Shown: positions 10,055 through 54,166 of the stretch, in pieces
How positions within the stretch are numbered: position 1 is the first letter of the stretch
Layout: each line of letters starts with the position of its first letter
Source of the DNA: Gammaproteobacteria bacterium
Lineage (GTDB): Bacteria; Pseudomonadota; Gammaproteobacteria; Steroidobacterales; UBA11654
Assembly (NCBI GenBank): GCA_029941465.1
Contig: JAPYQN010000003.1
Coordinates: 4,513-68,512 of the forward strand
Length of the DNA: 64,000 nucleotides
Direction: 5' to 3'
Translations under genes and position numbers: made by a program
Notes under the pieces: generated by a model
What the model was told of the DNA's origin: nothing
What the model saw: the letters and a program-made list of their open reading frames with translations, nothing else
Databases searched by the model: none

Positions 10055-10059
10055 GGTTG

Positions 10060-10569: not shown

Positions 10570-10577
10570 ATGAAATC

Positions 10578-11360
10578 CTAGATCTTATTTATAAAGCCTT
10601 TAAATTTATTTGCAATGGATTCAGTGTCTAAATCCAATTCTAGATTTTTACCCAGAATTACTTGTGTTTGTGAGTCCGGATTAATTTCTTTTGCACGATT
10701 GAAAAAGGGGTACATCACATCGTCTTTTGCGCACATTATTAAACACGGTTGTTGTATTTTTTTATAAGCATCAATGTCAGAGTATTCCCAAACCGCATGA
10801 TGTATTTGTTCTGCAGAATGATGTGCTCCCAATGCATCCAAAGTTTCTCTTTGCCTAAGATCTAAATCATTTTTTGCACCAAGAATTTCCCCTGCTAGAT
10901 GCCAGGCTTTTTTAAGATGAGAACCATCCTTTGTTGGGCTCCAATTAGAACTGATATTTTTTTTCATTTTCATTTTTTCCTCTGCTGTTGCTAGAAAAGG
11001 TCCCACCAGTGTTAATGATTTGACTGATCGTTCTTCCATGAGTGAGATCTGCATGGCTATTGAAGCTCCAGTGTGATGGCCAAATAAATGATAATGATTA
11101 ATTTCAAGAGAATTTATTGCCTCAATTAACCAAGATGAGTAGTCCTTAATCATGGGCTGGCCTAGAGGATTAAAGCTATGACCAAACCCAGGAGTGTCAA
11201 TAGCTACTGCATTCATTCCTTCTAAGGAATGCATTAACTTTTCAAACATTAATGAAGAACTTGGTGTTTGATGCAAGAAAACAATTGGAGTGCCTTGTCC
11301 TTCAATATATCTATAATGACATTGCCCACCTGATGTATCGACATAACCTTTTCTTATCAT
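10578..11360 (-). CDS. alpha/beta-hydrolase fold protein
   Basis: 260 aa with oxyanion region VFLHQTPSSS and DTPGFGHS. The nucleophile elbow reads FGHHTGAS rather than GxSxG (see findings). Confidence 0.65.
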   Translation of the reverse strand: MIRKGYVDTSGGQCHYRYIEGQGTPIVFLHQTPSSSLMFEKLMHSLEGMNAVAIDTPGFGHSFNPLGQPMIKDYSSWLIEAINSLEINHYHLFGHHTGASIAMQISLMEERSVKSLTLVGPFLATAEEKMKMKKNISSNWSPTKDGSHLKKAWHLAGEILGAKNDLDLRQRETLDALGAHHSAEQIHHAVWEYSDIDAYKKIQQPCLIMCAKDDVMYPFFNRAKEINPDSQTQVILGKNLELDLDTESIANKFKGFINKI

Positions 11361-14645: not shown

Positions 14646-14708
14646 ACTTTTTATCGTCCTTTAATTAGATTATATGTCTATACAGTCAAGCTATGAAGTA
14701 GTTTTCTT

Positions 14709-28548: not shown

Positions 28549-29586
28549 ATGAAATTAGGAATGGGATTAGGCTACTCTCCAGCCAAGCTTGAAATACCAA
28601 TGGATGATATTTTAGCTGCTGAGGAATTTGGGTTTGAATCAGTTTGGGCTGCAGAATCATATGGCTCAGATGCAGTTTCTGTTGCCGCTTATGTTTTGGC
28701 TTCCACATCAACAATAAAAGTCGGTACAGCAATTATGCAAATGCAAGCCAGAACACCGACTATGACAGCAATGACAGCTATGTCATTAAATGCTCTTTCG
28801 GATAACCGCTTTCTTTTAGGGCTTGGCCCATCTGGACCCCAAGTTGTTGAAGGATGGTATGGGCAACCTTATGGAAGGCCTCTGACCAGAACAAAAGAGT
28901 ATATTTCCATTGTTAGAAAGATTATTGAGAGAAAGGAGCGCTTAGTTCATGAGGGATACCATTATCAGATCCCTTATACTGGAGAAGGCTCATCAGGATT
29001 AGGTAAACCGCTAAAAAGTATTTTACATAGCACTGACGATCTAAAAATTTATACCGCCTCTATTACCCCTGCAGGATTGAGATGTGCAGGAGAAGTGGCC
29101 GATGGTGTTTTTCCGATTTGGATGAACCCAGAAAAGTTTGATCTTATTGGTCAATATGTAGAGGAAGGTTTCCAGAAGGCTGCAGAAGATAAAAGTTATG
29201 ATGGCTTTGATGTTGCACCATTTGTTCCTGTGGCTATGGGTGACGTTGATTTTTGTACCATGGCGATGAAACCAATGTTTGCACTATATATTGGAGGCAT
29301 GGGTGCAAAATCAAAAAATTTTTATAATGACTATGCTAAAAGACTAGGTTACGAGGAAGCCGCAGAAACTATCCAAGATCTTTATCTATCTGGAAAAAAA
29401 GAAGAAGCCATAATGGCAGTGCCTAATGAGCTAGTTGATGAATGTGCACTCATTGGCCCCCCAGAAAGAATTAAGGAAAGACTACAGTCATGGAAGGCTC
29501 TTGATAAAACTGGGAAGATTGGTACTTTGGTTCTAGGAAATGCCAATAAGAAATCCATGGAAGTCATAGCTAATGAAGTGTTTTAG
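28549..29586 (+). CDS. luciferase-like monooxygenase (LLM) class, probable F420-dependent oxidoreductase
   Basis: 345 aa. The blocks FESVWAAESYGSDA, RTPTMTAM, LGLGPSGPQVVEGWYG match my recollection of the actinobacterial F420-dependent LLM subfamily. F420 biosynthesis genes lie 2 kb away. Confidence 0.7.
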   Translation: MKLGMGLGYSPAKLEIPMDDILAAEEFGFESVWAAESYGSDAVSVAAYVLASTSTIKVGTAIMQMQARTPTMTAMTAMSLNALSDNRFLLGLGPSGPQVVEGWYGQPYGRPLTRTKEYISIVRKIIERKERLVHEGYHYQIPYTGEGSSGLGKPLKSILHSTDDLKIYTASITPAGLRCAGEVADGVFPIWMNPEKFDLIGQYVEEGFQKAAEDKSYDGFDVAPFVPVAMGDVDFCTMAMKPMFALYIGGMGAKSKNFYNDYAKRLGYEEAAETIQDLYLSGKKEEAIMAVPNELVDECALIGPPERIKERLQSWKALDKTGKIGTLVLGNANKKSMEVIANEVF

Positions 29587-31201: not shown

Positions 31202-33559
31202 CTAATAAGCTGGATGGGCACTGTTCAAAAATAATTCCATCCCATCAATAGTTTCATAATCACTATTTAATAATTCATTATAAAGTGTGTCTCTTAGTGC
31301 AGGGGATCTTTGTGCTTTTTTAATAAATTCTTCCATTTTTACCGGTGCAAACTCCTGTCCATGGATACTGCCCGCAGCTTTAGAAATAGATTCATTCATT
31401 AATGTTCCACCCATATCATTAACGCCAGCGTTAAGGCAACTCTCAGCTCCTTTAGGACCTAATTTAACCCAACTAACCTGTATGTTTTGAATGTGCGGAT
31501 GAAGAGTCAATCTTGAAACTGCATGCATTAAGAGAACTTCCCTAAACGTTGGACCTGGTCGGGCATCTCCTCTTTTATACATCGGTGATTCCATACTAAC
31601 GAAAGGTAGAGGTATAAATTCTGTTATGCCTTGAGTTTCTTTTTGAAGTTCTCTTAGCTTGACTAAATGCGTAGACCAATCTTTCACTGATTCTTGATGA
31701 CCAAACATAATGGTTGAGGTGGTATTAATACCCACTCGATGAGCAGTTCTAATAACATCCAACCATTCTTCTGATTTGAGCTTGTCTGGACAAATATGTT
31801 GCCTGACTCGATCATCAAGTATTTCAGCAGCAGTCCCCGGCATTGTTTTTAATCCTGAATCTTTTAAGAGTAGAAGGAAATTCTCTACGGACATATCCAT
31901 CGTTGAAGCACCATGCTGTATTTCAAGTGGTGAGAATGCATGGATGTGTATTTCAGGTACTTTCTTCATAATCGCATTACAAATATTGATGTATGTTTTT
32001 CCATCAAAATGTGGATGTATCCCACCCTGAAGACACACCTCAGTAGCTCCTCTATTCCATGCTTCATAAGCACGGTTAGCAATTTCATCGAAGGATAATA
32101 GGTAAGGTTTACCTCTTAGATTTTCCTTGGTTTTGCCCTTTGAAAAAGCACAAAAATGACATGTGTATTTACATATGTTGGTGTAGTTAATATTTCTGGT
32201 AATCACATAGCTAACTTTATCTCCATTAACCGCTTTCCTTAACTCATCAGCTTTGTTCAATACAAAATGAAGATCATCGCCTCTGCTTTGAAATAGTGTT
32301 GTAATTTCATCATGATTAAGATCTGTTTTAGAAAAGGCTTTTTCAATAATTTGATGAATATTTTCATTATTGGTATCAACTGCTTTGCTCCAGATTTGGT
32401 GATTACCAGATGAAGGAATATTTTTAGACTCTCCGCATCGCCAATCATTATCCCTTCCATACCCTTGTGTGTTAGATTGCTCATAAACATAGGGCTTCAA
32501 TTGATTATCAAACCAGTTCCCGTCAAGATACTCTGGATAGACAGCTAATCTTTCTTTTAGTTCAAAGCCTTTATTATTAGTGGCTAGTTTCAGTAATTCT
32601 AAATTAGGCCATGGTGATTCTGGATTAACATGGTCTTGGGTTACTGGCGACACACCTCCCCAATCATTAATGCCAGAATCTATGACGTCAGGCAGTGATC
32701 CCATGTTTAGATTTGGTGGGCATTGGAGGTTCATTGAAGTTCCAAATATGAGTCTTGTCATCGACAAGGTCCACAGTAAATCTTCTTTTGTAGGTGCCGG
32801 TGTATTTCTCATCTTGGTGTCTGGCTTAGGGATAAAATTCTGCACAATAATTTCTTGAATGTGTCCATACAAGTCATGGAGTTTTTTTATCTCCAGAAGA
32901 CTTTCTAATCTTTCTGTCCTGGTCTCCCCAATACCGATTAATATTCCTGTGGTTACCGGTATATTGGCTTTGCCCAAATTTTCGATTGTACTTAGCCTTA
33001 ACTCAGGGTTTTTATCAGGAGAGCCAAAGTGAGGGCCACCTTTCTCACAAAGCCTTGTTGATGAGGACTCAAGCATAATTCCCATGGAAACCGAAACCTC
33101 TCTTAATCGTTTTATTTCCTCAAGATTCATGGTTCCTGGGTTAAGGTGTGGAAGCAGACCCGTTTCTTCAATAACAAGTTTGGACATGTCATATAGGTAG
33201 TCAATGGTGCTTTGATAGCCTAAGTATTTAAGGTCATCCTTTGCTGCTTGGTATCTAAGTTCAGGTTTTTCACCTAGAGTAAATAATGCCTCTTTGCATT
33301 GATGTAGCGCTCCTTTTTTAGCAATGTCTAACACTTCATTTGATCTTAAATAAGGGTGTGCAAGTTTTCTTGGAACCTTTGCAAAGGTGCAATAATGACA
33401 AACATCTCGACACAACATTGTCAGTGGTATAAACACTTTTTTTGAAAATGTAATGGGCGTGCCTTTTTGATCACGGAGAATCCTTGCTTTCTCCATCAAT
33501 TCATTTAAGGGTGTTGATTCACCAATTTTTTTAAAATAAGAAAGTGAGTCGTTTTTCAT
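31202..33559 (-). CDS. fbiC: bifunctional FO synthase (CofG + CofH domains), 7,8-didemethyl-8-hydroxy-5-deazariboflavin synthase
   Basis: 785 aa with two radical-SAM CxxxCxxC sites (CRDVCHYC near the N-terminus, CKYTCHFC mid-protein). Sits in a cofCDE context. Confidence 0.9.
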   Translation of the reverse strand: MKNDSLSYFKKIGESTPLNELMEKARILRDQKGTPITFSKKVFIPLTMLCRDVCHYCTFAKVPRKLAHPYLRSNEVLDIAKKGALHQCKEALFTLGEKPELRYQAAKDDLKYLGYQSTIDYLYDMSKLVIEETGLLPHLNPGTMNLEEIKRLREVSVSMGIMLESSSTRLCEKGGPHFGSPDKNPELRLSTIENLGKANIPVTTGILIGIGETRTERLESLLEIKKLHDLYGHIQEIIVQNFIPKPDTKMRNTPAPTKEDLLWTLSMTRLIFGTSMNLQCPPNLNMGSLPDVIDSGINDWGGVSPVTQDHVNPESPWPNLELLKLATNNKGFELKERLAVYPEYLDGNWFDNQLKPYVYEQSNTQGYGRDNDWRCGESKNIPSSGNHQIWSKAVDTNNENIHQIIEKAFSKTDLNHDEITTLFQSRGDDLHFVLNKADELRKAVNGDKVSYVITRNINYTNICKYTCHFCAFSKGKTKENLRGKPYLLSFDEIANRAYEAWNRGATEVCLQGGIHPHFDGKTYINICNAIMKKVPEIHIHAFSPLEIQHGASTMDMSVENFLLLLKDSGLKTMPGTAAEILDDRVRQHICPDKLKSEEWLDVIRTAHRVGINTTSTIMFGHQESVKDWSTHLVKLRELQKETQGITEFIPLPFVSMESPMYKRGDARPGPTFREVLLMHAVSRLTLHPHIQNIQVSWVKLGPKGAESCLNAGVNDMGGTLMNESISKAAGSIHGQEFAPVKMEEFIKKAQRSPALRDTLYNELLNSDYETIDGMELFLNSAHPAY

Positions 33560-33597
33560 AGATTATTTATAGCTTTTTAGTAACGCGTTCACAATGA

Positions 33598-34227
33598 CTA
33601 TTTCCGAATCTCATAGAATTGATTTAAAGCAAGATCGCTCTCACTATTTCTATCGATTAAATCTTTCCAATCTTCAACATCATCTAGGTCAAAACTCAAG
33701 CCTTCTATTTGGAGTTCATTTGTTTGAATTCCAAGGCTTTCAGCTGTCCTTATATGCTTCTCAAAACTGTGCTTACCAAATTGAAATCTCATCAAATAAG
33801 ACAGATCAATAATTAATGCATTGGTGCCCCCATCTTTTTTTGCTTCCACTATTGTTAACCCTTTTGTGTGTTGATTGAGAAGCTCTATCAAATCATTTTT
33901 TTCAGCAAAGGGAAGATCGATGGAAACATATAGCATTTGTTTTACGCCTTGTTGATAGAGCCAATCAGCTGTTAGGTTTATATTTTCTTTTAGATCAATA
34001 GAAGTCTTGTCTTTGCGATGGATAATTTTATTATTGTGGTAAGTTTTGACCCATTTTGATTCATTGGTCAACAACACAATTTTTTCTATTTCTGGAATAT
34101 TAGTTAAATTGTTAATCATTCGATCAGCCATCATTTTAGTTAGTTCAATTCTTTTATTTTGATCTAAGATCTTTGATAACCGAGTCATGGTCTTTAGGAA
34201 ACTATTAATAGGAATGACTGCCCACAT
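33598..34227 (-). CDS. cofC: phospho-acid guanylyltransferase of F420 biosynthesis (CofC/FbiD)
   Basis: 209 aa with MWAVIPIN start, DGGTNAL, FGKHSFEKH and DLDDVEDW blocks characteristic of CofC. Confidence 0.8.
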   Translation of the reverse strand: MWAVIPINSFLKTMTRLSKILDQNKRIELTKMMADRMINNLTNIPEIEKIVLLTNESKWVKTYHNNKIIHRKDKTSIDLKENINLTADWLYQQGVKQMLYVSIDLPFAEKNDLIELLNQHTKGLTIVEAKKDGGTNALIIDLSYLMRFQFGKHSFEKHIRTAESLGIQTNELQIEGLSFDLDDVEDWKDLIDRNSESDLALNQFYEIRK

Positions 34228-34239
34228 AACTGATTTTAT

Positions 34240-35187
34240 TTATGATATGTGATCAATAAAATGAATGACATCTTCTGCGACACGTTTTTTGTCATCATCA
34301 TTGTTCATCATAATCTCTGAGAGTTTAACCTGTATTCCCATTGATTCTATCTGTCCTACATAGTCTTGATCAGAAGTATCAATGACGATTCCATCTATAT
34401 AGTCCTTATAATGTTGAGCTATTGTTAACACATTAGTTTCTAAACCTAGTTCATCCATGATTTTAGTGGTGGGTCCTTTGACACTCTGTCCATTAATTAT
34501 AGGTGAAACTGCGACTCTGGGATGTTTAGATTCTGTGATGGACTGTCTTATCTTTTCAATAGACAGTATTGGATCTATGCTGAGATAAGGATTAGATGGA
34601 CATATAACAATGCCCTTTAAGTCAGGGTCCATTAATATTTCAGTAACTTCAGCAGAAGGTTCTGGGTTTTTACTTTTAAATGAAATATTTTTAATCTTGG
34701 GCTTATTAGCTTGTTTTACAAAATATTCTTGGAATGACAGTAACCCTTTATTGGTATCAACGACTGTTTGGATCATGTGATCACTCATTGGTAATACAGT
34801 TGCTTTTAAATGGAAGCGATTAGCGATGTCTTGCGTAATCGATGTTAACCGTTCTCCGTTTCTTAATGCTTTTGATCGATGAAGGTGCAAGGCTAAATCT
34901 TTATCTCCAAGTTTAAACCAATTATCAGCGCCAAGTTCACCTAGTACATTATGAGTTTTCCATGTCTCATCTGCTCTTCCCCAGCCTGTTTCAGTATTAT
35001 TTACTCCAGCCAAGGTGTATACCAATGTATCGACATCTGGAGCAATATAAAAGCCAAGATATAAGAAATCATCTCCGGTATTGGTGATGAAGTATAATTC
35101 TTCTGGTGCACAAATTTGATGTAGGCCTAAACCTAATTTAGCACCTCCAACACCCCCACTAAGAGCTATAATTTTTCCACTAGCCAT
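34240..35187 (-). CDS. cofD: 2-phospho-L-lactate (or analogue) transferase CofD/FbiA
   Basis: LSGGVGGAKL N-terminus and CofD-typical blocks. I prefer the ATG at 35187 (MASGKII) over the TTG at 35193 of the ORF track. Confidence 0.9.
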   Translation of the reverse strand: MASGKIIALSGGVGGAKLGLGLHQICAPEELYFITNTGDDFLYLGFYIAPDVDTLVYTLAGVNNTETGWGRADETWKTHNVLGELGADNWFKLGDKDLALHLHRSKALRNGERLTSITQDIANRFHLKATVLPMSDHMIQTVVDTNKGLLSFQEYFVKQANKPKIKNISFKSKNPEPSAEVTEILMDPDLKGIVICPSNPYLSIDPILSIEKIRQSITESKHPRVAVSPIINGQSVKGPTTKIMDELGLETNVLTIAQHYKDYIDGIVIDTSDQDYVGQIESMGIQVKLSEIMMNNDDDKKRVAEDVIHFIDHIS

Positions 35188-35189
35188 GT

Positions 35190-35975
35190 TCAACGAAATA
35201 GATCTTCTTCTTTTGGTCTAATTAAATCATCGACGGTATCAGAATCTGATGGCATATCAATGCCTTTAACCAGAACAATTGGTTTTCCTTCATTACTTTC
35301 TCCCATAATTAGTGTGGCAGAAGAGGCTATTTGATCTGCCAAACCAATAACAGTTGTTTGAAGTTCACGACCAAATAAGTCAGTGCCTTTTTGTCTTAAA
35401 TCAACTATTGTTTTTACACCAGATGCTCCGATAGCATGCCCAATCGTACCTAATCTCCAAGGTCTTCCTATACTATCAGTAATGATAACCCCTATTGTTT
35501 TACCGGTTTGAATCTCTATGTATTCTTTAATCTTTTTAGCTGATTCATTTGGGTTCTTGGGTAGTAATAAAACGGTTTCTTTGCCTGGTTTATGATCTAT
35601 ATTCGACTGATCGATACCAGCGTTAGCAAGTATGTGTCCCAGACGATGTTCAACAATGATTACACCTTTTTTAATTCTGATAATTTCTTTAGATTCTTGA
35701 ATAATCAATTCAACTAATCGTGGGTCCTTGTCTGTTTTTTCTGCTATTTTTATTGATTCATTAGAGGGAGTAATGGTTTCTAAATCAACTAAACAGCCTT
35801 CAGCTTTGGAGATTATTTTCTGAGCTATAACAACGATGTCATTGTCTTCTAATTCAAGAGAATCTTTGTTCATAGATTTAAGAATAATTTCTGCAATGTC
35901 ATCATTCTCTTTAATTGAAGGCACATGATTTAGTGCTGACACTTCAAGTTTGCTAATAGCCAATTTAAAGCTCAT
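35190..35975 (-). CDS. cofE: coenzyme F420-0:L-glutamate ligase (ligase domain only)
   Basis: 261 aa with CofE blocks (VVIAQKIISKAEG, NAGID.SN, DS.GRPWR.G). No C-terminal nitroreductase-like domain. Confidence 0.85.
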   Translation of the reverse strand: MSFKLAISKLEVSALNHVPSIKENDDIAEIILKSMNKDSLELEDNDIVVIAQKIISKAEGCLVDLETITPSNESIKIAEKTDKDPRLVELIIQESKEIIRIKKGVIIVEHRLGHILANAGIDQSNIDHKPGKETVLLLPKNPNESAKKIKEYIEIQTGKTIGVIITDSIGRPWRLGTIGHAIGASGVKTIVDLRQKGTDLFGRELQTTVIGLADQIASSATLIMGESNEGKPIVLVKGIDMPSDSDTVDDLIRPKEEDLFR

Positions 35976-35994
35976 GAAATTATTACGCGTCAGG

Positions 35995-36651
35995 CTAATG
36001 CGAGGTAATTTTGATACCCGACGATTTTAATTTATGGTTTTTATTGATCACAATAAGAACAGATGTTAGAGCTTCAGCTGCTGCTGAGTTTTCTAGACCA
36101 CCTGCATACCAACATTTAAGACCAAGACAACCAAGTAAAGACATAACTGTTTCAGCAGATTCTTTATTATTTCCAGTGACTAAAACTTCTGCTTTAATAG
36201 TATCCTTTGAGTCAATCAGGTGTGAGCCAATATTTTGCAGAGCTGCAACAATTTCAACCTCGGTACCAAGGATTCTTTGGGCTTCCATTGCTGCTGAGCC
36301 AATTGCTGGTAATTGAACTTTTGTAACCATTTTTTGCAGTGGTACAGTTGTATCAATCAAGATTTTGCCTTTAAGATCTTCCTTAACTAAATTAAGAGTA
36401 TCAGCATGACTTGAATAAGGCACTGTTAAAACAGAAATATCAGATTCTCTTGCTGCTGTTTTCGAATCCAATCCTTGGATATTACTTACATTGAGTTCTG
36501 CGTTAACTTGTGTTGCTATTTTTTGAGCTTTTACAGGGTCTCTGGACCCAATTAATATTTCATATCCAGCTATAGCCCACTTTTTTGTTAAAGCTGAGCC
36601 TAAGGCTCCAGTTCCACCTAAAATTCCAATTTTTCTAATTTTATCAATCAT
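35995..36651 (-). CDS. npdG: NADPH-dependent F420 reductase (Fno/NpdG)
   Basis: [15 protein letters not shown] Rossmann start, about 218 aa. ATG at 36651 lies 8 nt inside the 3' end of ilvD. The ORF-track start at 36687 would overlap ilvD further. Confidence 0.85.
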
Positions 36652-38497
36652 GTTTCTTTTCCTCAGGAACAATTCTAACAGCTCCATCAGAGGCAGAAGC
36701 AGCCATCAATGCATAGGCTTTCAATGCTTGGCTAACAACCCTATTCCTAGCTCTGGGTTTCCATGCCTTAGAACCTCCACTCTTCATTAGCACCCTTCTT
36801 TGTTCAATTTCTTCAGGTAATAAATCAACATTTATAGTTCTTTTAGGTATGTCTATATTTATTATGTCACCGTCTTCTACCAAAGCAATATTCCCTCCAG
36901 ATGCAGCTTCAGGAGATATGTGACCAATGGATAAACCTGAAGTGGCTCCTGAGAATCTTCCATCAGTGATAAGAGCACATTTTTTCCCTAAGCCTTTTGA
37001 TTTTAGATAACTGGTCGGGTAAAGCATTTCTTGCATGCCAGGTCCGCCTTTAGGGCCCTCATAACGAATAAGCACAACATCACCAGGTTCTATGGCATTA
37101 TTTAGAATGGCCTCGACTGCTTCATCTTGACTTTCAAATATTCTTGCAGTTCCACTAAAGATAAGATTACTTTCATGCACACCTGCAGTTTTTACTATGC
37201 ATCCTTCTTCAGCAATATTGCCTTTAAGTACAGCTAATCCTCCGTCAGTGCTGTATGCATTATCTGTGTTTCTAATACACCCTGTTTCACGATTAAGATC
37301 CAATTTTTCAAAACGTTTATTTTGTGAAAAGGGTTCAATTGTTGGAATCATACCTGGTGCAGCCGAGTAGAACTTTTTAATTTTATCACTGGGATTACGA
37401 TTAATATCCCATTGCTCAATGGCTTTTTCTAATGAAGAAGAATGGACAGTTTTTGTTTCAGTATTTAGTAATTTTGCTTTTTCTAGTTCACCTAAAATTG
37501 CCATTACGCCTCCAGCACGATGCACATCTTCTAGATGAAATTGACTGCTTGGAGCGACTTTACACAAATTTGGAACTCGTCTTGATAATCGATCGATGTC
37601 ATTAATTGTAAAATTGATGTTTCCCTCTTTAGCCGCAGCTAAAATATGTAGGACAGTGTTGGTTGAACCACCCATCGCTATATCTAAGGTCATGGCATTT
37701 TCAAATGCTTCTTTACTAGCAATATTTCTTGGAAGCACTTGTTCATTGTCTTCTTCATAATATGCTTTGGTGATTTCAACAATAAGCTTCCCAGCTTTTA
37801 GAAATAAGTCTTTTCTATCAACATGTGTTGCTAAAACACTCCCATTACCTGGGAGTCCGAAGCCTAAGGCTTCAACAAGACAATTCATGGAATTAGCAGT
37901 AAACATTCCAGAGCATGAACCGCAAGTTGGGCAAGCAGATCGTTCTACGTTCTCAAGATCTTCGTCTGAAATCGAGTCATCAGCAGCCAGACCCATAGCA
38001 TCCACTAAATCTAATGTTGTTTCTTTACCTTTAATAAAACTCTTACCCGCTTCCATTGGGCCACCTGAAACAAAGATTGTTGGAACGTTTAAACGCATTG
38101 TGGCCATTAACATTCCTGGGGTTATTTTGTCACAGTTTGAAAGACATACTAAGGCATCAGCACAATGCGCATTAACCATGTATTCAACTGCATCTGCTAT
38201 GAGTTCTCTTGAGGGAAGACTATATAACATGCCTGAATGACCCATAGCAATTCCATCATCAACAGCTATAGTACTGAATTCTTTTGCTACTCCCCCAGAT
38301 TTGTCTATTTCTCGAGCCACCATTTGCCCCAAATCTTTAAGATGAATATGACCAGGAACAAACTGAGTAAAAGAATTAGCTATAGCAATTATAGGTTTCC
38401 CAAAATCGTTATCTTTCATTCCCGTGGCACGCCATAATGCTCTGGCGCCGGTCATATTTCTCCCGTGCGTTGATGTTTTCGATCTATAATCAGGCAT
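36644..38497 (-). CDS. ilvD: dihydroxy-acid dehydratase
   Basis: 617 aa. N-terminus [27 protein letters not shown]...[19 protein letters not shown] is nearly identical to enterobacterial IlvD. Confidence 0.95.
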
Positions 38498-42854: not shown

Positions 42855-43052
42855 TCATTGTTTTGTTTTATCTTGCTGGTAAAAATAGATGTAAAGAATG
42901 GGCAACATACCCGCGGTGTTCAAAATAGCAAGAACAATAAACCATGCCAGTTGTCTATTGGTTGCTGCTTTCCATAGAGCAACTAATTCCCAACATAATG
43001 ACCAAATGATTAGAGGAATAATCCAGTAATATAATAATGGTGGTTCAAGCAT
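42855..43052 (-). CDS. small two-helix membrane protein (DUF5652-like)
   Basis: 65 aa. The LWKAATNRQLAWFIVLAILNT segment resembles the remembered DUF5652 pattern. Lies 17 nt after the kinase-like gene. Confidence 0.45.
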   Translation of the reverse strand: MLEPPLLYYWIIPLIIWSLCWELVALWKAATNRQLAWFIVLAILNTAGMLPILYIYFYQQDKTKQ

Positions 43053-43069: not shown

Positions 43070-43756
43070 TTAATTTTTATAGATTAAATTTCTTATAATC
43101 CTATAATATTTTTCTACCAGGGTAGGTGCATAGTATATTAAATCTTTTGTGTCTATATCCTCATAATTTCTTTTATATTTATGTTTTATCCAAGCGTTTA
43201 GATCAGTTTTTCTTAAGAAGTTGAAACCCCACTTCTGTATGATCCAGCTTTCTTTATTAATTGTTATGGCTGTACCAAAATCAATCAGGAAAGGCTCGTT
43301 ATTTGCATTTACTAGGATATTATCTTTTCTTTTTAAATCTCCATGAGCTACACCCATTTTGTGCATTGTAGTAATTAGTTCAAATAATGACTGAAAAAAT
43401 ATTTCGTTATCAGACAGTTCATATTGTTTCTCACGATAAGAATGCCCCTCTATATGTTCTAAAATAAGATCCCCATTATTAGTTAATCCATAACAACCGG
43501 GGATACCCTTTAAACCTCTTAATTTATTGTATATTTTGCTCTCTTTTTTAAGTGAACGCTGATTAAAGAAACTTAATATAGTTTTAGACGTATTGGCTTT
43601 TTTAATGAGATAACATTGTCCGTTAAGTTTGAGGGCATACAGAAGACCTTGATTGCCCTCATAAGATTTAATCAATTTTTTACCAGTCTTAAGCTCTTTC
43701 TCTATAGACTGTACAAGAGCTGATTCGTTTAATGATTCTTGTTGTTGATTAGACAC
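43070..43756 (-). CDS. protein-kinase-like fold protein (Kdo/WaaP/RIO-like)
   Basis: Catalytic loop HGDLKRKDNILV and DFG motif. 8-nt overlap with the upstream methyltransferase gene. Confidence 0.6.
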   Translation of the reverse strand: MSNQQQESLNESALVQSIEKELKTGKKLIKSYEGNQGLLYALKLNGQCYLIKKANTSKTILSFFNQRSLKKESKIYNKLRGLKGIPGCYGLTNNGDLILEHIEGHSYREKQYELSDNEIFFQSLFELITTMHKMGVAHGDLKRKDNILVNANNEPFLIDFGTAITINKESWIIQKWGFNFLRKTDLNAWIKHKYKRNYEDIDTKDLIYYAPTLVEKYYRIIRNLIYKN

Positions 43757-44354
43757 GATTCCAAATAATAACTAACCATGTGAGAACATAGATTACAATC
43801 ACCGGTTCATAATTTGTAATTAAACTCTTCTTGAGTGACCAGCGTTTTAGATCTAATGGTTTATTAAAAATACCTTGGTTGAGTTTTGGCACTAGAGCAG
43901 GAGTTTTATTTGCCCAATTTTCCCAAGTTTCAGGGAATAATGATTTTAGCTTTCTATCTTCATATTCAATCGCTGGTGGATAATAAAACCAGAAAAATAT
44001 AGCAGCAGTTATCAAGGACCAAAGAGAACCATTGACTCCACACAACCCAAAGAGAATTATAATATTTCCAGTGTATAAAGGATGTCTCATAAAGGCATAA
44101 GGACCTGTAGTGGATAGTTCTTTATTCTTTAATACAAACCCTGAGGCATACATACGAGTAATAAGACCAAAAATGATTAGAGATATAGAAAAATGATGCT
44201 GAAATGGAATAGAAGGGTGTGGATCTGCAAAGTAACAAAAAATACTCACCAGTATTATTCCAATACCTTGTCTTGAAAATTCGTGATATCTCAATTCTCT
44301 AATCAGATGAGATAATCCAGATAATTTAGGCAGGTCGTGGGTTCGATGTGACAT
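43749..44354 (-). CDS. ICMT/PEMT-type membrane methyltransferase family protein
   Basis: 201 aa with multiple TM helices and the RHPLYTG motif typical of isoprenylcysteine carboxyl / phospholipid methyltransferase-like enzymes. Confidence 0.7.
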   Translation of the reverse strand: MSHRTHDLPKLSGLSHLIRELRYHEFSRQGIGIILVSIFCYFADPHPSIPFQHHFSISLIIFGLITRMYASGFVLKNKELSTTGPYAFMRHPLYTGNIIILFGLCGVNGSLWSLITAAIFFWFYYPPAIEYEDRKLKSLFPETWENWANKTPALVPKLNQGIFNKPLDLKRWSLKKSLITNYEPVIVIYVLTWLVIIWNRV

Positions 44355-44360
44355 AACTTC

Positions 44361-45233
44361 TTATTTCCTATTCTCGTTCACTTCTTCGACAAAAGCTTGA
44401 TCAATTTTTGAGATCCCTTGATTTTTTGCTTCTTTGATAATGCCTTTCAGCACCGTTTTAACAAATACTTTTGGTACTCCTGTTAATTGCTTGCAAGCAT
44501 TTGCAGTGAAAGTGATGTCTTCATCTAGCCTATTAGCTATATACATAACTGCTTCGTGTTCTGCTCCTTTCCCCTCTGGAGTCGGTATCCAAAAGGCTTT
44601 TTTATGTTTTGCAAACCAGAATTGGTTCGCATTTCTAAACCCAAAACTAATAGGCATATTTGGTACTTTCATATCGTCACCTAGATCAAGATTATCTCTC
44701 CAGGTTTCTCTCAGATATATTTTGTTTATTTTGAGGAGTAGATACTCAGTAGTTTCAGTGCCTTTATAATAAAAATCCTCGGGATTATCATTCAGTTCGC
44801 ATTCAAACACTTGAAACGCACCTTTAATGACTTTTGGTCTTTCAGGGTCTTCTCGATAAGCAACACTTGGGGTTTCTTCAAGTTCGAAAGCACAGTCTTT
44901 CATTTTTTCTTCAGGTTCTTGACCCGGGTAACCTAAGTCTACTATGTTTTTAATTTTGCTCTTATCGTACTCCACAAAATTCATCGCACACTTTTTAATT
45001 CTTTTGATGTTAGTTGAAGTGTTTGACCCTCTCCTCGAGATTACAATCCATTCTCTTCTGTTAATTACACCAAAGGGAAAAGAAAGCTGATAAGGCCCGA
45101 TACTTGTTATCCCTTGTTCATTTGTGGTTGTAATAAGAGCGAAAGAGCTGAGGAAATAAGCACTGGATTGATACCAGTTATCATGCATTGGGCTTTCAAC
45201 CCATCTCTCATCTTTCTTTTTCGAAAAAAGCAT
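44361..45233 (-). CDS. flavin-reductase-like split-barrel protein with BchB/ChlB C-terminal-like (PCP_red-like) tail
   Basis: The N-terminal half (FALITTTNEQGITSIGPYQLSFPFG) resembles flavin reductase-like domains. The last ~50 aa (FTANACKQLTGVPKVFVKTVLKGIIKEAKNQGISKI) fit the W/F..eA...L..vP.FVr....iE.fA...Gi..It pattern. Both calls are from memory. Confidence 0.45.
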   Translation of the reverse strand: MLFSKKKDERWVESPMHDNWYQSSAYFLSSFALITTTNEQGITSIGPYQLSFPFGVINRREWIVISRRGSNTSTNIKRIKKCAMNFVEYDKSKIKNIVDLGYPGQEPEEKMKDCAFELEETPSVAYREDPERPKVIKGAFQVFECELNDNPEDFYYKGTETTEYLLLKINKIYLRETWRDNLDLGDDMKVPNMPISFGFRNANQFWFAKHKKAFWIPTPEGKGAEHEAVMYIANRLDEDITFTANACKQLTGVPKVFVKTVLKGIIKEAKNQGISKIDQAFVEEVNENRK

Positions 45234-45309
45234 TTCAGAATTCTAACCGTTTTATCTTTAAAGTAATAATGCTAATTTATATTTTAGTTTATTAAATTTA
45301 TTAAATAAG

Positions 45310-46107
45310 ATGATCAGGGGATTTACATTACTCTTTTTTTACATTATCAGTGCTAGTGTGCAGGCTGTTCCAACAGATGAGCAGTTAGAAAAAGCTGATT
45401 ATTTAAATGGCAAGAATGTTTTTCAGCAACGATGTAGTGCTTGCCATACCTTAGCTGAAGATAGTGCTAATATAATTGGGCCAAATCTATGGCATATATT
45501 TAATCGGGGTGTTGGAGACGATATCAATTTTAGATACTCGGACTCAATGAGTTCTTCTAATTTAATTTGGGACAAGGAATTAATCTATAAATTTTTACGA
45601 GGACCTCAACAACTCTTTCCAGATAGTAATATGATAATTCCTGAACCTGTTCCTGAAGAACTATTGACCGATATGATTGCTTTTATGATGATTGAAACAG
45701 ACGCCCCCTATAAACCAAATATAGAAAGAATATTTATTGCTGAAAAACAAGACAAAAGTCTTCCAATTTCAGCACGTTTTCCTAGTTTTTGGAATCATTT
45801 AATGTTCAACACAACTCACTACAGATTAATTACGAATAATAATGAGATTGAATTTGATGCCTATTTTAATACCGACGGTTCTGTTTCAACAAACCTCAAG
45901 GATACAATTGGTTTCTGGCATGTTACAAATAAAGACATGTTTTGTTATGCGATCCACCGCATACCTTTTTCAATATCAGAATTTGTTGAATGTTTTCCTA
46001 TAGGTGCAATGGCAATACCTCGATTTGCTAAGGAGCTTTGGCGTTCAAAACCCAAAGAAGGGGTAATTCTTCATGGCGGGATTTTGCCAGGGAGACCTGT
46101 AGAATAA
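45310..46107 (+). CDS. secreted c2-type cytochrome c fused to an unknown ~140-aa C-terminal domain
   Basis: Signal peptide, single CSACH haem site, GPNL and YS motifs. The C-terminal half has no recognised family. Confidence 0.7.
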   Translation: MIRGFTLLFFYIISASVQAVPTDEQLEKADYLNGKNVFQQRCSACHTLAEDSANIIGPNLWHIFNRGVGDDINFRYSDSMSSSNLIWDKELIYKFLRGPQQLFPDSNMIIPEPVPEELLTDMIAFMMIETDAPYKPNIERIFIAEKQDKSLPISARFPSFWNHLMFNTTHYRLITNNNEIEFDAYFNTDGSVSTNLKDTIGFWHVTNKDMFCYAIHRIPFSISEFVECFPIGAMAIPRFAKELWRSKPKEGVILHGGILPGRPVE

Positions 46108-46126
46108 AAAAAGTTATAATAAAAAA

Positions 46127-47092
46127 ATGATAGATTTCAAAGAACTAAGTGATTCGCTTACTGGCAAGGTTAGAGGTAATCCAGTTGCAATAAGCCTATT
46201 TGAAGAAGTAATCCCAGAAGTTTATCAGAAGAAGAAAGTTGTTCCTTGTTCCATCGTTAGACATGCGATGGATAAGGGTGAAATAGTTTCATTTGATAAA
46301 CATCATCATGATTGTACAACCGGTGTTTATACAGCAGGTGTTCATGAGGGCACTGAAGAAATCAGAACAGGGCAATATCTTGCACAAAATATTCCTGCAT
46401 ATACCGATCTAGGGGCAGAGAAAATTAAAACTGGAGAATATATACTGCCACAAAACACAGTTGTAGGAATTGGTGCAGCTCCTCTTTCAGAGGTACCTTC
46501 AGGCATTCATGTTGATTGGATAGTCGTGGTTTGCACACCTCATTGGGCTAATTTCATTGGTGGAGCTCGGACAGTTTTAGACGGTACACCGCCTCGAGGG
46601 GCTGCCGGCTCTTCTTTCTGTAGCGACCTTTTTGCAACGCCATGGCATGATGGAAATGTTGTTATTACCCCAGGTGATCTAGGTGGTCGGATGAATAATC
46701 GTCTAAAACCTGAGGAAATGTTTGTGGTTGTACCAAATAAATATTTAGAAAGTTTGCTTAGCATCATGACTACAACGCCAGATGCAAGAGCTGTTCTTGA
46801 AGCCACTAAACCAGAAGAATCAGAATATTGGGATAAGAGAAAAAGAGCCAAGAAGGCTAAAGCAAAAAAACAGAATGATGAGCCTACGAACAATGATTTT
46901 GAATCAAAACTCAGCATGACTTGGGATCAAGAATCAAAAGACATCATTGCCATGACGCCTCCAGGAATTATTGAGATGGCGATAAATAATGTAGAGGATT
47001 TTGCAAGAGATAAGGGTATTGAACAAATTACCAAATCAGTGGTTATGGACCAAATGCAAAGCGTTGGCATGGATCCAAGCATGCTAAATTAG
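46127..47092 (+). CDS. DUF169-like protein with Lys-rich linker and PCP_red-like C-terminal domain
   Basis: The N-terminal ~230 aa have a DUF169-like pattern of Cys/Gly. Linker KRKRAKKAKAKKQ. C-terminus MTWDQESKDIIAMTPPGIIEMAINNVEDFARDKGIEQIT resembles the BchB/ChlB C-terminal domain. Confidence 0.5.
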   Translation: MIDFKELSDSLTGKVRGNPVAISLFEEVIPEVYQKKKVVPCSIVRHAMDKGEIVSFDKHHHDCTTGVYTAGVHEGTEEIRTGQYLAQNIPAYTDLGAEKIKTGEYILPQNTVVGIGAAPLSEVPSGIHVDWIVVVCTPHWANFIGGARTVLDGTPPRGAAGSSFCSDLFATPWHDGNVVITPGDLGGRMNNRLKPEEMFVVVPNKYLESLLSIMTTTPDARAVLEATKPEESEYWDKRKRAKKAKAKKQNDEPTNNDFESKLSMTWDQESKDIIAMTPPGIIEMAINNVEDFARDKGIEQITKSVVMDQMQSVGMDPSMLN

Positions 47093-47098
47093 CATTTC

Positions 47099-47959
47099 AT
47101 GAAAGGTAAAACTTGTTTAATTACTGGTACAGCTAGTGGTATGGGTAGAATTGCCGCAAAGGCACTTGCAGAAAAAGGCGCTAATCTCATACTTGTTGAT
47201 TTTGATACAGAGAATGGAATCTTAGCAAAAGATGAAATTATTCAGGACACAGGTAACCAGGCAGTTGAATATATTGATTGTGACGTCTCTTCTTTTGCTA
47301 ATTTAAGAAATTTATCAAAAAATATCTATGCTCGTTATGCTCATTTGGATGTTTTAATAAATAATGCTGGTATTACCGAGTCGTCCAGAAGGGAAAGTGT
47401 GGATGGCCATGAAATGACTATGGCAACAAATTTTCTAGCACCTTTTCTACTGTCTCATCTTCTATTGGATTTATTAAAAAAACGACAACATTCTAGAATT
47501 ATTAATATTTCATCAGACGGTCATAAAATGGCTAAGAATATTAATTTCCAATCAATGAATTTTGAAAGCGGTTGGGAGAATGTTAATCATTCAATGGGTT
47601 TTCAGGCTTATGCAAGATCAAAGCTCTGCCTAAATGCCTTTTCATTTAAATTATCAGAACAACTAAAAGGGACAAGCGTTGATGTTTATGCGGTTTCACC
47701 TGGTTATTTCATCAACACAAATATTCACAGACATATGCGGGGCATGCATGGCCTCTTTGTAAAATTAATTAAGCCTTTTTTGCAGTCTGCTGAGAGAGGT
47801 GCTTTGAACCATATTGTTATGGCTTCTGAATCAAAATATTCTGGTAGAACAGGTTTATACTGGGAGCATGGTGAAACAAAAGAGGCATCAGAACTCTCTT
47901 ATGATTCTGAGATTATAGACTTTGTTTGGGAGTATGCTTCAAAAGCTACAAATATTTGA
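47099..47959 (+). CDS. short-chain dehydrogenase/reductase (retinol-dehydrogenase-like)
   Basis: TGTASGMG, NNAG, YxxSK (YARSK) motifs. 286 aa. Confidence 0.8.
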   Translation: MKGKTCLITGTASGMGRIAAKALAEKGANLILVDFDTENGILAKDEIIQDTGNQAVEYIDCDVSSFANLRNLSKNIYARYAHLDVLINNAGITESSRRESVDGHEMTMATNFLAPFLLSHLLLDLLKKRQHSRIINISSDGHKMAKNINFQSMNFESGWENVNHSMGFQAYARSKLCLNAFSFKLSEQLKGTSVDVYAVSPGYFINTNIHRHMRGMHGLFVKLIKPFLQSAERGALNHIVMASESKYSGRTGLYWEHGETKEASELSYDSEIIDFVWEYASKATNI

Positions 47960-47976: not shown

Positions 47977-48336
47977 ATGAACGACATTATGGATAGTGAT
48001 CTTGAGAAAATTATTATAACCACTGCCCCAACAGTGGCTAACAAAGAGATTGATTATGAAATTGATATTATCACTGCTGAATGTGTTTTTGGTATGAATA
48101 TATTCAGAGATTTATTTGCTGGAATTAGAGATATTTTTGGTGGAAGAAGTGTAGCAAGTCAAAAAATACTAAGAGACTCACGTCAAACCTGTTTAAGAGA
48201 ACTGAAGATAGAAGCACATGAATTAGGTGCCGATGCGATTATTGGTGTTGATCTAGATTACCAGGAATTTTCTGGTAAAGGTAAAGGCATGTTATTTCTT
48301 GTGGCATCTGGCACGGCAGTTAAATTAAGAGGTTAA
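47977..48336 (+). CDS. YbjQ/UPF0145 family protein
   Basis: 119 aa. The blocks GGRS......L...R......L...A...GA.A.IGV..DY are characteristic of YbjQ. Confidence 0.8.
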   Translation: MNDIMDSDLEKIIITTAPTVANKEIDYEIDIITAECVFGMNIFRDLFAGIRDIFGGRSVASQKILRDSRQTCLRELKIEAHELGADAIIGVDLDYQEFSGKGKGMLFLVASGTAVKLRG

Positions 48337-51850: not shown

Positions 51851-54166
51851 ATGAGTAAATTTCACTTATCAGTTAAAATTTGGCTAATTATTTGCTTATC
51901 CAATGCAATATTCTCAGCCTATGTCAGCGCTGAAATCACTGTCGATGGTCGTTTGGATGAAACAGAATGGAAACAAGCACAGCGATTTGAAAACTTTGTT
52001 GAAACAAGCCCTTTCAGTTTGAAGGAAACAACGCATCCGACTGAGGTGTTGATTCTCACTGATGAAAAAGGAATTTATTTTGGGTTTATCAACGAACAGC
52101 CATGGGATACACGATACAGAAGGAAACAAGAGCGTGATGCAATGTGGGCTGATTCCGACCGAAATTTCATCTCTATCGATTTTGATGGCAAAGCCAACAT
52201 GGGCTATTTTTTTGGCGTCAATCTAGGCGGCTCCATGAGTGATGGCTCAATCAGCGGTGAGAGTCAGATGGACAGAGATTGGGACGGGGATTGGGAAGCG
52301 AAGACATCTGAATCAGAAACCCATTGGTATTCGGAGTTTTTTCTCCCCTGGACTGTGGTTCCGATGATGTCAGGACAGGAAAGCAAGAGGAACATCGGCG
52401 TTTATTTTTCTCGACAAATGATGCAGGAGGGAAAAGTGATAGGGTTTCCTGGACTCAATTACGAACGCAAAAAATTTCTCTCCCTCTTTCATCCGGTCAC
52501 AGTGGATCAATATGAGTCGACAAAATTTGATGTTTTCCCTTATACGGTGGGTTCCTACGATAATTTGCAAGATTCCGCTGAATACCAGGCAGGATTGGAT
52601 CTGTTTTGGGCGCTGGGTAATGGTCGGGAGTTGAATATGACTGTGAACCCTGACTTTGGTCAGGTTGAAAGTGATGAAGTGGTGATAAATTTTTCCCCAG
52701 TTGAAACGTTCTTTTCAGATAGAAGGCCATTTTTTGCCGAGAATCAGGGGCTGTTTAATATTTCCCACGGTAATGACTACCACCTCATCAATACTCGTCG
52801 AATCGGGGCCTCTCCTGATTATAATTGCACAGATTTTTCAGCTGCAAATGGTGGTTCTGATGCTTTGCAAGAATCTTGCGAGAATGAACAAGAGGCAAGC
52901 AATGGCATTGACACGGCTGTAAAGTTTACCCAACTGGGAGAAAATACCGATGTTGGTTTCTTTGCTGCTTTTGAGGATGATGAAACATTTAGTGCGGGAC
53001 GTGAATTTTACGCTGTTAGGGCCTTGAGGAGATTAAATCAACATAAGCTGGGGTATCTTGCAACGCACGTTGAACGAGATGCCTTGGATAGAAGTGCTAC
53101 CGTCCACGCGTTTGATTACGAAAATCAAGCAACGGAGACCCTGACATTAAATAGTTTATTGATGTACTCAGACACTATCGATGAAAGTGGCTACGGGATG
53201 CGTTTTGGTATGAACTACGACCCTAATAAGTTCTGGAATACAGAGATTGCTTATTACCGTTTTGATGATGACTTAAACATCAATGATATGGGTTATCAGA
53301 CCCGGAATAATTTGAGTAATTTCAGAACTTTTACCATGTATACTGAGACCGATTTTCTGACAACGTCAAAAATTTTAGAACGCACATACACCTTGCTTTT
53401 TTCAAAAAAAGCCGATACTCATGGTCTGCAATTATCACAAAATATCAATCTTAGCTTTAAGCAAGCATTTAAAGACACTTCTGGTTTTGAAATTAAGTTT
53501 GGGCATGGCTCTTCAGGAAACAATGACCTATTGACCAGAGGCAGTGCGTTGGCACCCTTCGTCAAATTCGGTCAGGGTAGGCAGTTCGAATTGACTTACT
53601 ACGGCAAACAGAATAAGCGTTGGAGTTATTGGGCGTATCTTTCAAGAGACAGGCGATCATTCCAATCATTTACTGAAAGTTCAAATACCATAGCGCTGGG
53701 TGGAAATTATTACCCTTCAGATGATCTAAAATTTGGTATACATCTTGGGAAGGCCAATTCTAAAAATTGGCTCAATTGGCTGGGAGATAACAGGCTTGGG
53801 ACCTATCCTCTTGATTATTTCTCCATAAGGGCCAATGCTACTTGGTTTCCAAAGGAAAAACACGAACTGCGAATTAAATTTCAAACTAATATCATGGAAA
53901 CCAAAATCGGAGCCGAATGGTTGGCTGACAGTACCGGTAACTTGAATTCTGCCAATTCACCAGCTGCTGGATTTGATCTTGGGCAGTTGGCCTTCCAGGT
54001 TAGGTACAAATATGAAATTAGCCCACTGTCTCATTTCTATGCCGTCTATACTCGAGGAGGTAGACATTACGAAGATGATGATGTGAGTGTCAGTGAGATA
54101 ATTAGTGGAACCTGGAACAACCCGAAAGAAGACAGATTTACATTGAAGCTGAGAATGAAGTTTTAA
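51851..54166 (+). CDS. outer-membrane CBM9-like / DUF5916-type protein (paralogue 2)
   Basis: 771 aa with a signal peptide and C-terminal MKF. About 55% identity (80 of 146 positions by hand count, gap-free) with the first mature residues of the 19031-21346 protein. Confidence 0.6.
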   Translation: MSKFHLSVKIWLIICLSNAIFSAYVSAEITVDGRLDETEWKQAQRFENFVETSPFSLKETTHPTEVLILTDEKGIYFGFINEQPWDTRYRRKQERDAMWADSDRNFISIDFDGKANMGYFFGVNLGGSMSDGSISGESQMDRDWDGDWEAKTSESETHWYSEFFLPWTVVPMMSGQESKRNIGVYFSRQMMQEGKVIGFPGLNYERKKFLSLFHPVTVDQYESTKFDVFPYTVGSYDNLQDSAEYQAGLDLFWALGNGRELNMTVNPDFGQVESDEVVINFSPVETFFSDRRPFFAENQGLFNISHGNDYHLINTRRIGASPDYNCTDFSAANGGSDALQESCENEQEASNGIDTAVKFTQLGENTDVGFFAAFEDDETFSAGREFYAVRALRRLNQHKLGYLATHVERDALDRSATVHAFDYENQATETLTLNSLLMYSDTIDESGYGMRFGMNYDPNKFWNTEIAYYRFDDDLNINDMGYQTRNNLSNFRTFTMYTETDFLTTSKILERTYTLLFSKKADTHGLQLSQNINLSFKQAFKDTSGFEIKFGHGSSGNNDLLTRGSALAPFVKFGQGRQFELTYYGKQNKRWSYWAYLSRDRRSFQSFTESSNTIALGGNYYPSDDLKFGIHLGKANSKNWLNWLGDNRLGTYPLDYFSIRANATWFPKEKHELRIKFQTNIMETKIGAEWLADSTGNLNSANSPAAGFDLGQLAFQVRYKYEISPLSHFYAVYTRGGRHYEDDDVSVSEIISGTWNNPKEDRFTLKLRMKF

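Follow-up and report, generated by a model that had tools for sequence, protein, structure and literature searches.

Why should two enzymes built on unrelated scaffolds, encoded by divergently transcribed genes in a gammaproteobacterium, both end in a segment resembling the C-terminal domain of BchB/ChlB, a subunit of the light-independent protochlorophyllide reductase? The question arises from a locus in a 64,000-nucleotide stretch of DNA (the window; G+C 34-42%) from a Gammaproteobacteria bacterium (assembly GCA_029941465.1, contig JAPYQN010000003.1, positions 4,513 to 68,512). One gene encodes a flavin-reductase-like protein, here called fam1, and the other a DUF169 enzyme whose nearest public relatives, at up to 97% identity, are in marine gammaproteobacterial metagenome-assembled genomes (MAGs), several of them labelled 'uncultured Woeseia sp.'. 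An earlier note on this DNA had likened both tails to the BchB/ChlB domain known as PCP_red (PF08369). Profile comparisons and predicted structures confirmed homology of both tails with PCP_red as well as with one another, and a re-check found the coordinates and peptide strings given for them correct. Below, fam2 denotes a large family combining Flavin_Reduct and PCP_red, A-type and B-type are subtypes of the tail, L-numbers are genomic loci of relatives and P-numbers are proteins. The features at the centre of the analysis are as follows.

44361-45233, minus strand: fam1, a split-barrel flavin-reductase-like open reading frame of 290 aa with a C-terminal PCP_red-like tail
44379-44513, minus strand: predicted A-type divergent PCP_red of fam1, residues 241-285, then a short conserved N-x-E-R tail
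44388-44510, minus strand: stretch FTANAC...QAFV of the fam1 tail, residues 242-282
46127-47092, plus strand: DUF169 enzyme of 321 aa (PF02596) that ends, after a basic linker, in a PCP_red tail of PF08369 type
46922-47092, plus strand: B-type PCP_red, residues 266-306, with the conserved C-terminal extension ...QSVGMDPSMLN
46922-47044, plus strand: stretch WDQESK...KSVV of the DUF169 tail, residues 266-306

The Pfam profile of PCP_red is 45 positions long and has a gathering cut-off of 32.5 bits. The DUF169 protein scored below this cut-off both when Pfam was run on the whole protein (20.0 bits with an E value of 7e-4, profile positions 1-41 of 45) and when its isolated tail was compared with the profile hidden Markov model (HMM; 23 bits), whereas its more distant orthologues P0241 and P0243, taken from a representative library, exceeded it with 33.5 and 36.3 bits. 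PF08369 is also precomputed on many DUF169 relatives of 82-95% identity, and the tail was kept in all 66 related DUF169 loci. Cultured carriers of DUF169-PCP_red include Halioglobus japonicus and Thalassomonas sp. M1454. When DUF169 tails were aligned by hhalign with canonical PCP_red repeats, for which we used the five repeats of P0323 (each about 40 bits in Pfam), the score was 59.6 (probability 97.8%, E 7.7e-13). The NCBIfam model of BchB aligned its last 90 positions (443-532 of 535) to residues 223-312 of the protein, at 21.8 bits against a whole-model cut-off of 509, and a search of the Protein Data Bank (PDB) with the profile of the DUF169 tails returned a weak match to ChlB alone (E 0.19). 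The AlphaFold2 (AF2) model of the protein had a predicted local distance difference test score (pLDDT) of 86.2. In a Foldseek search of the PDB with the whole model, 2KRU, the nuclear magnetic resonance structure of the BchB PCP_red domain, ranked first, the free-standing Nostoc protein asr4154 (2L09) second, and ChlB within the complex of the protochlorophyllide oxidoreductase of dark-operative type (DPOR; 2YNM chain D) 27th. The predicted tail superposed on 2KRU with a root-mean-square deviation of 0.9 A over 51 columns and a target-normalised TM score of 0.77. Since orthologues pass the Pfam cut-off, the BchB model aligns and 2KRU is the top Foldseek match, the DUF169 tail is, on these sequence and model comparisons, a genuine PCP_red domain. 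It is joined to the DUF169 core by a Lys/Arg-rich linker predicted to be helical (residues 228-262, EYWDKRKRAKKAKAKKQ...), which differs in length and sequence among orthologues and keeps its basic character.

The tail of fam1 is more divergent. A full-length Pfam scan of fam1 gave no PCP_red match, and the isolated tail scored 13.9 bits (E 0.055, profile positions 2-43 of 45). The tail is strongly conserved across the fam1 family, which comprises at least 462 clusters, and 30 of 51 diverse family members gave weak full-length matches to PCP_red, the best with an E value of 7.5e-5. In profile-profile alignment, the fam1 tails matched the canonical repeats over 45 columns (score 35.9, probability 93.3%, E 2.8e-7); 100 column-shuffled profiles, which served as chance controls throughout, scored 9.4 +/- 2.0 with a maximum of 14.7, placing the real score about 13 standard deviations (sd) above them. 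Intermediate sequences were also found: the fam1-like proteins of L076 and L077 matched PCP_red at 21.7-23.1 bits (profile positions 1-44), an HMM of DUF169 tails hit the L076 tail with an E value of 3e-5, and P0336, a fam1 homologue of 34% identity (E 4e-52) that is collinear through the tail, carries a first tail that starts with the canonical W and covers profile positions 1-45, followed by a second tail of the DUF169 (B) type. The fam1 tail is collinear with the PCP_red-scoring tails of all three. A PDB profile search with the fam1-tail alignment did not find BchB. In the AF2 model of fam1 (pLDDT 84.9), the tail displayed the element order EE-H-H-EE-H that is also predicted for the DUF169 tail (pLDDT 87-95 in the two models). 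Owing to the family-level hits, the profile-profile score, the intermediates and this common secondary-structure pattern, we regard the fam1 tail as almost certainly homologous to PCP_red.

Direct comparison of the two tails by BLASTP produced no alignment, because pairwise comparison is too insensitive at this distance. Aligned as profiles, the fam1 and DUF169 tails scored 25.3 (E 1e-3 to 1e-4), in the register that the earlier note had proposed; across the three comparisons (real scores 35.9, 59.6 and 25.3) the shuffled controls scored 9-10 +/- 2 and at most 19.2. The mutual homology implied in that note was thus borne out, as was the resemblance of each tail to BchB/ChlB. Its suggested Pfam scan gave a divided answer, with both window tails under the cut-off and DUF169 orthologues above it, and treating the lack of a significant hit as a refutation would wrongly have rejected fam1. 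These two are the only PCP_red tails in the window. The module spans about 50 residues with the pattern beta-alpha-alpha-beta-alpha and comes in two subtypes, the A-type on fam1 and free-standing proteins and the B-type on DUF169 proteins and fam2.

PCP_red was also found on several other proteins. P0323 combines a Usp domain, the five PCP_red repeats and a rubredoxin-like domain; P0244, P0245 and P0252 are fusions of DUF169, PCP_red and SRPBCC; P0343 carries PCP_red on a lipoprotein-like protein; and free-standing copies of 60-70 aa are represented by 2L09 and by genes in L027 and L081. The fam2 proteins (about 275 aa, 667 hits) have PF01613 and PF08369 precomputed on nearly all members, and their tails are of the B subtype, like that of the window DUF169 protein, scoring 49-54 bits. 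Judged by sequence, PCP_red is therefore a mobile accessory module on several scaffolds, including two families of split-barrel flavin reductases. The domain call itself is not new, as DUF169 plus PCP_red and Flavin_Reduct plus PCP_red have already been assigned automatically in databases, the latter for more than 660 clusters; since both close relatives of the DUF169 protein and a large Flavin_Reduct family have PF08369 precomputed, to call the architecture undescribed went too far. It is nonetheless a correct and non-trivial remote-homology call on divergent members of a known domain. Our literature searches returned no described function for PCP_red on these enzymes or for DUF169, and neither they nor the structure searches yielded a solved DUF169 structure.

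The claim that the two catalytic scaffolds are unrelated held. With the predicted model of fam1, Foldseek retrieved NbaA (E 1.6e-10), followed by flavoredoxins and FMN-binding proteins (1e-9 to 1e-8) and HpaC-type reductases. The Pfam scan found no PF01613 match and a weak one to DUF447_N only, and PF01613 or PF01243 is precomputed on several of the 462 full-length fam1 homologues. The fam1 body is, by its modelled fold, a Flavin_Reduct-type split barrel. The core of the DUF169 protein was identified by Pfam (PF02596, 82.9 bits against a cut-off of 27, residues 14-211), and its model gave no fold match in the PDB at E <= 1e-3. Three cysteines, C41, C63 and C165, show no variation among 67 sequences of the subfamily and 23 of generic DUF169 proteins, a hint that the active site may rely on a metal, Fe-S or thiol chemistry. 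The Pfam scan found no match to the Oxidored_nitro core in either protein. Elsewhere in the window lies a complete cluster for F420/F0 biosynthesis (31202-36687 on the minus strand and 28549-29586 on the plus strand), comprising a fused FbiC-like radical-SAM protein with CofH_C, CofC, CofD, CofE and an F420-dependent NADP oxidoreductase, with a luciferase-like monooxygenase nearby; to our knowledge, such a cluster is unusual in a low-GC pelagic gammaproteobacterium. Because of its proximity we considered F420 dependence of fam1, and the use of a deazaflavin by split-barrel proteins such as fam1 is a possibility.

The genes around the pair are the following.

42855-43052, minus strand: DUF5652 membrane peptide, in the same leftward string as fam1
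43070-43756, minus strand: small RIO/Bud32-like kinase, same leftward string
43749-44354, minus strand: membrane methyltransferase of PEMT/ICMT type, tightly packed behind fam1
45234-45309, no strand: divergent intergenic spacer of 76 nt between the fam1 and cytochrome c genes
45310-46107, plus strand: secreted class I cytochrome c (PF00034) fused to a C-terminal domain
47099-47959, plus strand: classical short-chain dehydrogenase/reductase (SDR) of the PRK06197 (RDH/WWOX/LPOR) branch, 6 nt 3' of the DUF169 gene (adh_short 2e-34)
47977-48336, plus strand: YbjQ-family protein (PF01906, 7e-29), last of the rightward gene string, which comes and goes in relatives

The fam1 gene is thus the first of a leftward operon, and the string of fam1, methyltransferase, kinase and DUF5652 peptide is kept across the clade. 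Genes for SCO1, PCuAC and a DAO-type flavoprotein run convergent toward the rightward string. The span 44361-47959 contains four genes, not five proteins as had been counted. The 76-nt divergent gap is real, and a consensus scan of the spacer gave no sigma-70-like site. In other parts of the window we noted paralogous secreted DUF5916 proteins of 771 aa with similar N-termini, encoded 30 kb apart (19031-21346 and 51851-54166, both on the plus strand), and two tandem VanA-type Rieske [2Fe-2S] oxygenase paralogues (13524-15818, minus strand) whose neighbours are an FAD-dependent monooxygenase (16720-17901) and an unannotated membrane protein of 299 aa.

The SDR was placed by its best NCBIfam model, PRK06197, with 169 bits where the cut-off is 268, and no model of the light-dependent protochlorophyllide oxidoreductases (LPORs) was among its top 25 matches. 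LPOR structures were the main PDB entries whose alignment spanned the SDR wholly or for the most part (about 57 bits, E about 1e-14), and generic SDRs scored equally high over the Rossmann half. Because the LPOR score reaches about 57 bits only, generic SDRs equal it over that half and PRK06197 is the top model, the sequence comparisons indicate that the window SDR is not an LPOR.

The cytochrome c had been grouped with the pair, a placement that was not supported. PF00034 covers residues 33-112, PDB cytochromes c of the c2/mitochondrial type match residues 30-127 (E 5e-16), and the protein has an N-terminal hydrophobic leader or signal peptide and a CSACH motif; its conserved C-terminal domain of about 135 aa had no Pfam or PDB match. 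The gene adjoins the SCO1 and PCuAC genes, and roughly half of the loci in the clade lack it. Export, variable presence and this neighbourhood led us to reject the cytochrome as a system component; given the signal peptide and the loci that lack it, it is probably a periplasmic bystander of the cytoplasmic proteins. A 47%-identical homologue is encoded in L001 (11226-12071), where a fam1 gene precedes it by 2.3 kb; it belongs to a run of unannotated genes on one strand, among them one for a CpeT/CpcT-like protein of the bilin-lyase family.

We then asked how far the pairing extends. Synteny of the divergent pair was complete within the clade, where fam1 and DUF169-PCP_red were neighbours in 21 of 21 loci with the flank present (DUF169 identity 76-97%), with the cytochrome c, SDR and YbjQ genes variably present; it is nevertheless confined to this one shallow clade and was absent from the more distant loci described below. 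At 7 of the 46 deep loci, an orthologue of the SDR adjoined DUF169-PCP_red. Among the neighbours of PCP_red-bearing genes, this SDR recurs most often. A first neighbour clustering had put an SDR in 27 of the 46, a figure that was inflated by generic SDRs and that we rejected.

Outside the clade, PCP_red-bearing genes were found together in other combinations. In an alphaproteobacterial MAG, locus L027 packs five genes into 4.3 kb, three of them PCP_red-bearing: besides DUF169-PCP_red and the orthologue of the window SDR there are genes for a membrane protein, for an A-type PCP_red of 70 aa and for a fam2 protein whose PCP_red is B-type (37.3 bits). L081 unites an SDR orthologue (2e-76), a free-standing A-type PCP_red and fam2, with no DUF169, and in P0336 the A and B tails stand in tandem on one fam1-like protein. 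These are three independent juxtapositions of A-type and B-type tails, with the SDR as common neighbour in two. Because the L027 and L081 clusters and the tandem tails of P0336 recur independently, coupling of PCP_red enzymes gains support, and functional coupling of the window pair is plausible from sequence. The common partner or ligand proposed for the two tails is inferred. A metagenome scan with P0336 retrieved two short contigs only, with single-tailed fam1-like genes and no DUF169. Two further features of these loci were recorded, namely an MtrA-like protein (corrinoid-binding methyltransferase subunit A) fused to PterinBD-DUF4346 in L027 (6836-7711, minus strand), 0.9 kb from the PCP_red cluster, and a PEMT/ICMT gene near fam2 in L081 (10767-11369), as behind fam1 in the window.

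Elsewhere, fam2 genes were found beside a luciferase-like monooxygenase or UbiD decarboxylases. Luciferase-like monooxygenases and UbiD enzymes are typical consumers of reduced flavin, so fam2 may act as a supplier of flavin or electrons. A UbiD-family prenyl-FMN-dependent decarboxylase together with a major facilitator superfamily (MFS) transporter lies beside fam1 in L074 (4351-9282) and beside fam2 in L078 and L079 (6264-10162), a hint that in some genomes UbiD-type enzymes may be the clients of tailed flavin reductases. Other tightly coupled neighbours of DUF169-PCP_red were an SRPBCC protein, a resistance-nodulation-division (RND) pump and a TspO-like protein. In one gammaproteobacterial lineage (L030, L035, L037, L039 and L041, about 10001-12071), the DUF169-PCP_red gene overlaps the end of the RND efflux pump gene by 18-30 nt, and in four of these loci (not L041) it is followed by a TspO/MBR-like membrane protein with a score of 23.9 bits (cut-off 24). 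A gene for an SRPBCC (polyketide-cyclase/START-like) ligand-binding protein lies just upstream of the DUF169-PCP_red gene and overlaps it in Actinomycetota (L058-L060 and L065), and in P0244, P0245 and P0252 the SRPBCC domain is fused at the C-terminus, after PCP_red.

How, then, might the pair work? We propose that fam1 and the DUF169 enzyme share a cytoplasmic reductive pathway in this clade, usually with the adjacent SDR, in which electrons from NAD(P)H would pass to a flavin on fam1, and reduced flavin or electrons would then reach the DUF169 enzyme and perhaps the SDR. In DPOR, the C-terminal helix of BchB covers the protochlorophyllide or substrate cavity (PMC4071322). By analogy, the PCP_red tails may serve as trans-acting lids or docking elements, either holding the two enzymes together, possibly with the SDR, or closing over a shared bulky and probably lipophilic substrate. 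Hints of a hydrophobic substrate surround DUF169-PCP_red, with SRPBCC fused or overlapping upstream, an RND pump overlapping upstream and a TspO-like protein downstream. We judge the chances of this shared pathway with trans-acting tails to be about even. Several results weigh against it. The SDR is lacking from approximately half of the clade loci, and fam1 was found within 10 kb in none of 43 deeper DUF169-PCP_red loci (identity at most 61%), which span Halieaceae, Spongiibacteraceae, Acidimicrobiales, Nanopelagicales and others. Five deeper fam1 loci lacked DUF169 and had variable contexts, and four sampled fam2 loci had neither DUF169 nor an A-type PCP_red nearby. The tail of fam1 itself stays under the Pfam cut-off throughout, and as the barrel dominates the fold-search list of the fam1 model, what the model shows of the tail is its predicted secondary-structure pattern. 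The mean net charges of the tail subtypes are opposite (+2.8 versus -4.5 and -2.7), a pattern from which the A-type copies of P0336 and of free-standing proteins depart; charge complementarity between A and B tails, which we considered and set aside, is true on average and fails in these copies.

These results leave room for other explanations. The tails may have a common ancestry without a common function, each being a generic lid or oligomerisation element of its own homo-oligomer, while fam1 and DUF169 would lie side by side through a neutral gene order inherited within the clade. This is a real possibility, though short of probable: the pairing is confined to relatives with at least 76% DUF169 identity, the contexts of fam1 and fam2 are diverse (UbiD, luciferase-like monooxygenase, generic SDRs or none), as are those of DUF169-PCP_red, and the C-terminal helix of DPOR works inside the NB complex itself (PMC4071322). 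Independent lids sit less well with L027 and L081, where PCP_red genes cluster with the other flavin reductase family and a free-standing PCP_red, and with the tandem A and B tails of P0336; two or three genes with so rare a small domain within 3-4 kb are unlikely to meet by chance. It is very unlikely that the likeness of the fam1 tail is a coincidence between short amphipathic helical segments and that only the DUF169 tail is a real PCP_red. The sub-threshold Pfam result, the empty BLASTP comparison and the failure of the fam1-tail profile to find BchB in the PDB would fit such a coincidence, but it is contradicted by the distance of the hhalign score from the shuffled controls, the full-length alignments of 30 of 51 family members, the L076 and L077 intermediates and the identical predicted secondary-structure pattern of both tails.

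The locus may instead act on a tetrapyrrole or another large planar pigment, such as a breakdown product of haem or chlorophyll, with PCP_red capping the macrocycle and the SDR and DUF169 enzymes reducing it. We think this unlikely. The sole known role of PCP_red is to cover bound protochlorophyllide (PMC4071322), LPORs are the main solved structures to match the SDR along its length, and a TspO-like protein follows DUF169-PCP_red in four loci, fam1 of L001 has a CpeT-like protein at its side and L027 encodes an MtrA-like corrinoid protein. Each of these hints is, however, weak and was picked after the fact, with the TspO-like match just short of its cut-off; the SDR is not an LPOR, its best model itself scoring below cut-off; no gene of tetrapyrrole biosynthesis or degradation was found among the window proteins scanned; and SRPBCC, the RND pump and UbiD would suit quinones, aromatics and other lipophiles equally well.

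Returning to the shared reductive pathway, a bolder version would make PCP_red a general docking and capping module with complementary subtypes, the A-type mostly basic and the B-type acidic, that pair with each other or with SDRs of the RDH/LPOR branch, and so give non-photosynthetic marine bacteria a soluble reductase of several enzymes, whose bulky substrate would be macrocyclic or lipophilic and might be a tetrapyrrole. We regard this version as improbable; if it were true, the C-terminal lid of DPOR would be one specialised case of a much wider assembly principle. The literature treats PCP_red solely as the lid at the C-terminus of BchB, and it now appears as a widespread module on at least four non-photosynthetic scaffolds, whose genes tend to lie near one another and near one type of SDR. 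The locus offers a handle on three things, namely DUF169 proteins, the many flavin reductases that bear a tail, and PCP_red itself. If docking turns out to be the role of the tails, they would mark a route of reduced flavin or electrons between soluble enzymes in abundant marine heterotrophs.

Compared with known systems, the window tails have the signature (W/F-x-x-E/A-A...L...P-x-F...A...G...I/V-T/D) and, in the model of the DUF169 tail, the fold of the PCP_red domains of BchB/ChlB (2KRU, 2YNM chain D and 2XDQ chain B), and as in those proteins they are C-terminal on a redox enzyme. Unlike BchB/ChlB, the window proteins have no nitrogenase-like Oxidored_nitro core, BchN/BchL partner or photosynthesis context, their PCP_red copies lie under the Pfam cut-off, the B-type adds a conserved ...GMDxxML and the A-type has F in place of the signature W. 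Like asr4154 of Nostoc PCC 7120 (2L09), they represent PCP_red outside DPOR; asr4154 is free-standing and from a phototroph, whereas the window domain is fused, and its 70-aa counterparts in L027 and L081 adjoin flavin reductase-PCP_red genes. The SDR aligns with the RDH/WWOX/LPOR branch (PRK06197; 6L1H, 7JK9 and 9TL6) along its whole sequence or most of it, the characteristic C-terminal segment of the branch included, and it differs in scoring under every family cut-off and in showing no sign of light dependence or of a protochlorophyllide substrate. The window DUF169 protein is a clear member of its family (PF02596, COG2043) with the three invariant cysteines kept; most DUF169 proteins have about 210-270 aa and no tail, whereas the window subfamily is extended by the basic linker and by PCP_red, to which some Actinomycetota add SRPBCC.

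Among flavin reductases, fam1 shares its split-barrel fold with HpaC, component B of NTA monooxygenase, NbaA and flavoredoxin (Foldseek E 1e-10 to 1e-7); unlike fam1, these two-component reductases and flavoredoxins have 150-200 aa and no PCP_red tail. Its closest parallel in architecture is fam2, annotated as the 'flavin reductase (DIM6/NTAB) family' (RutF), which likewise joins a split-barrel flavin reductase to a C-terminal PCP_red. The two barrels are only remotely related, with E values of 1e-3 to 1e-5 when searched against a small database, and the fam1 tail differs in being of the A subtype and unflagged by databases. Relatives of fam2 adjoin luciferase-like monooxygenases and UbiD enzymes, as two-component flavin reductases do.

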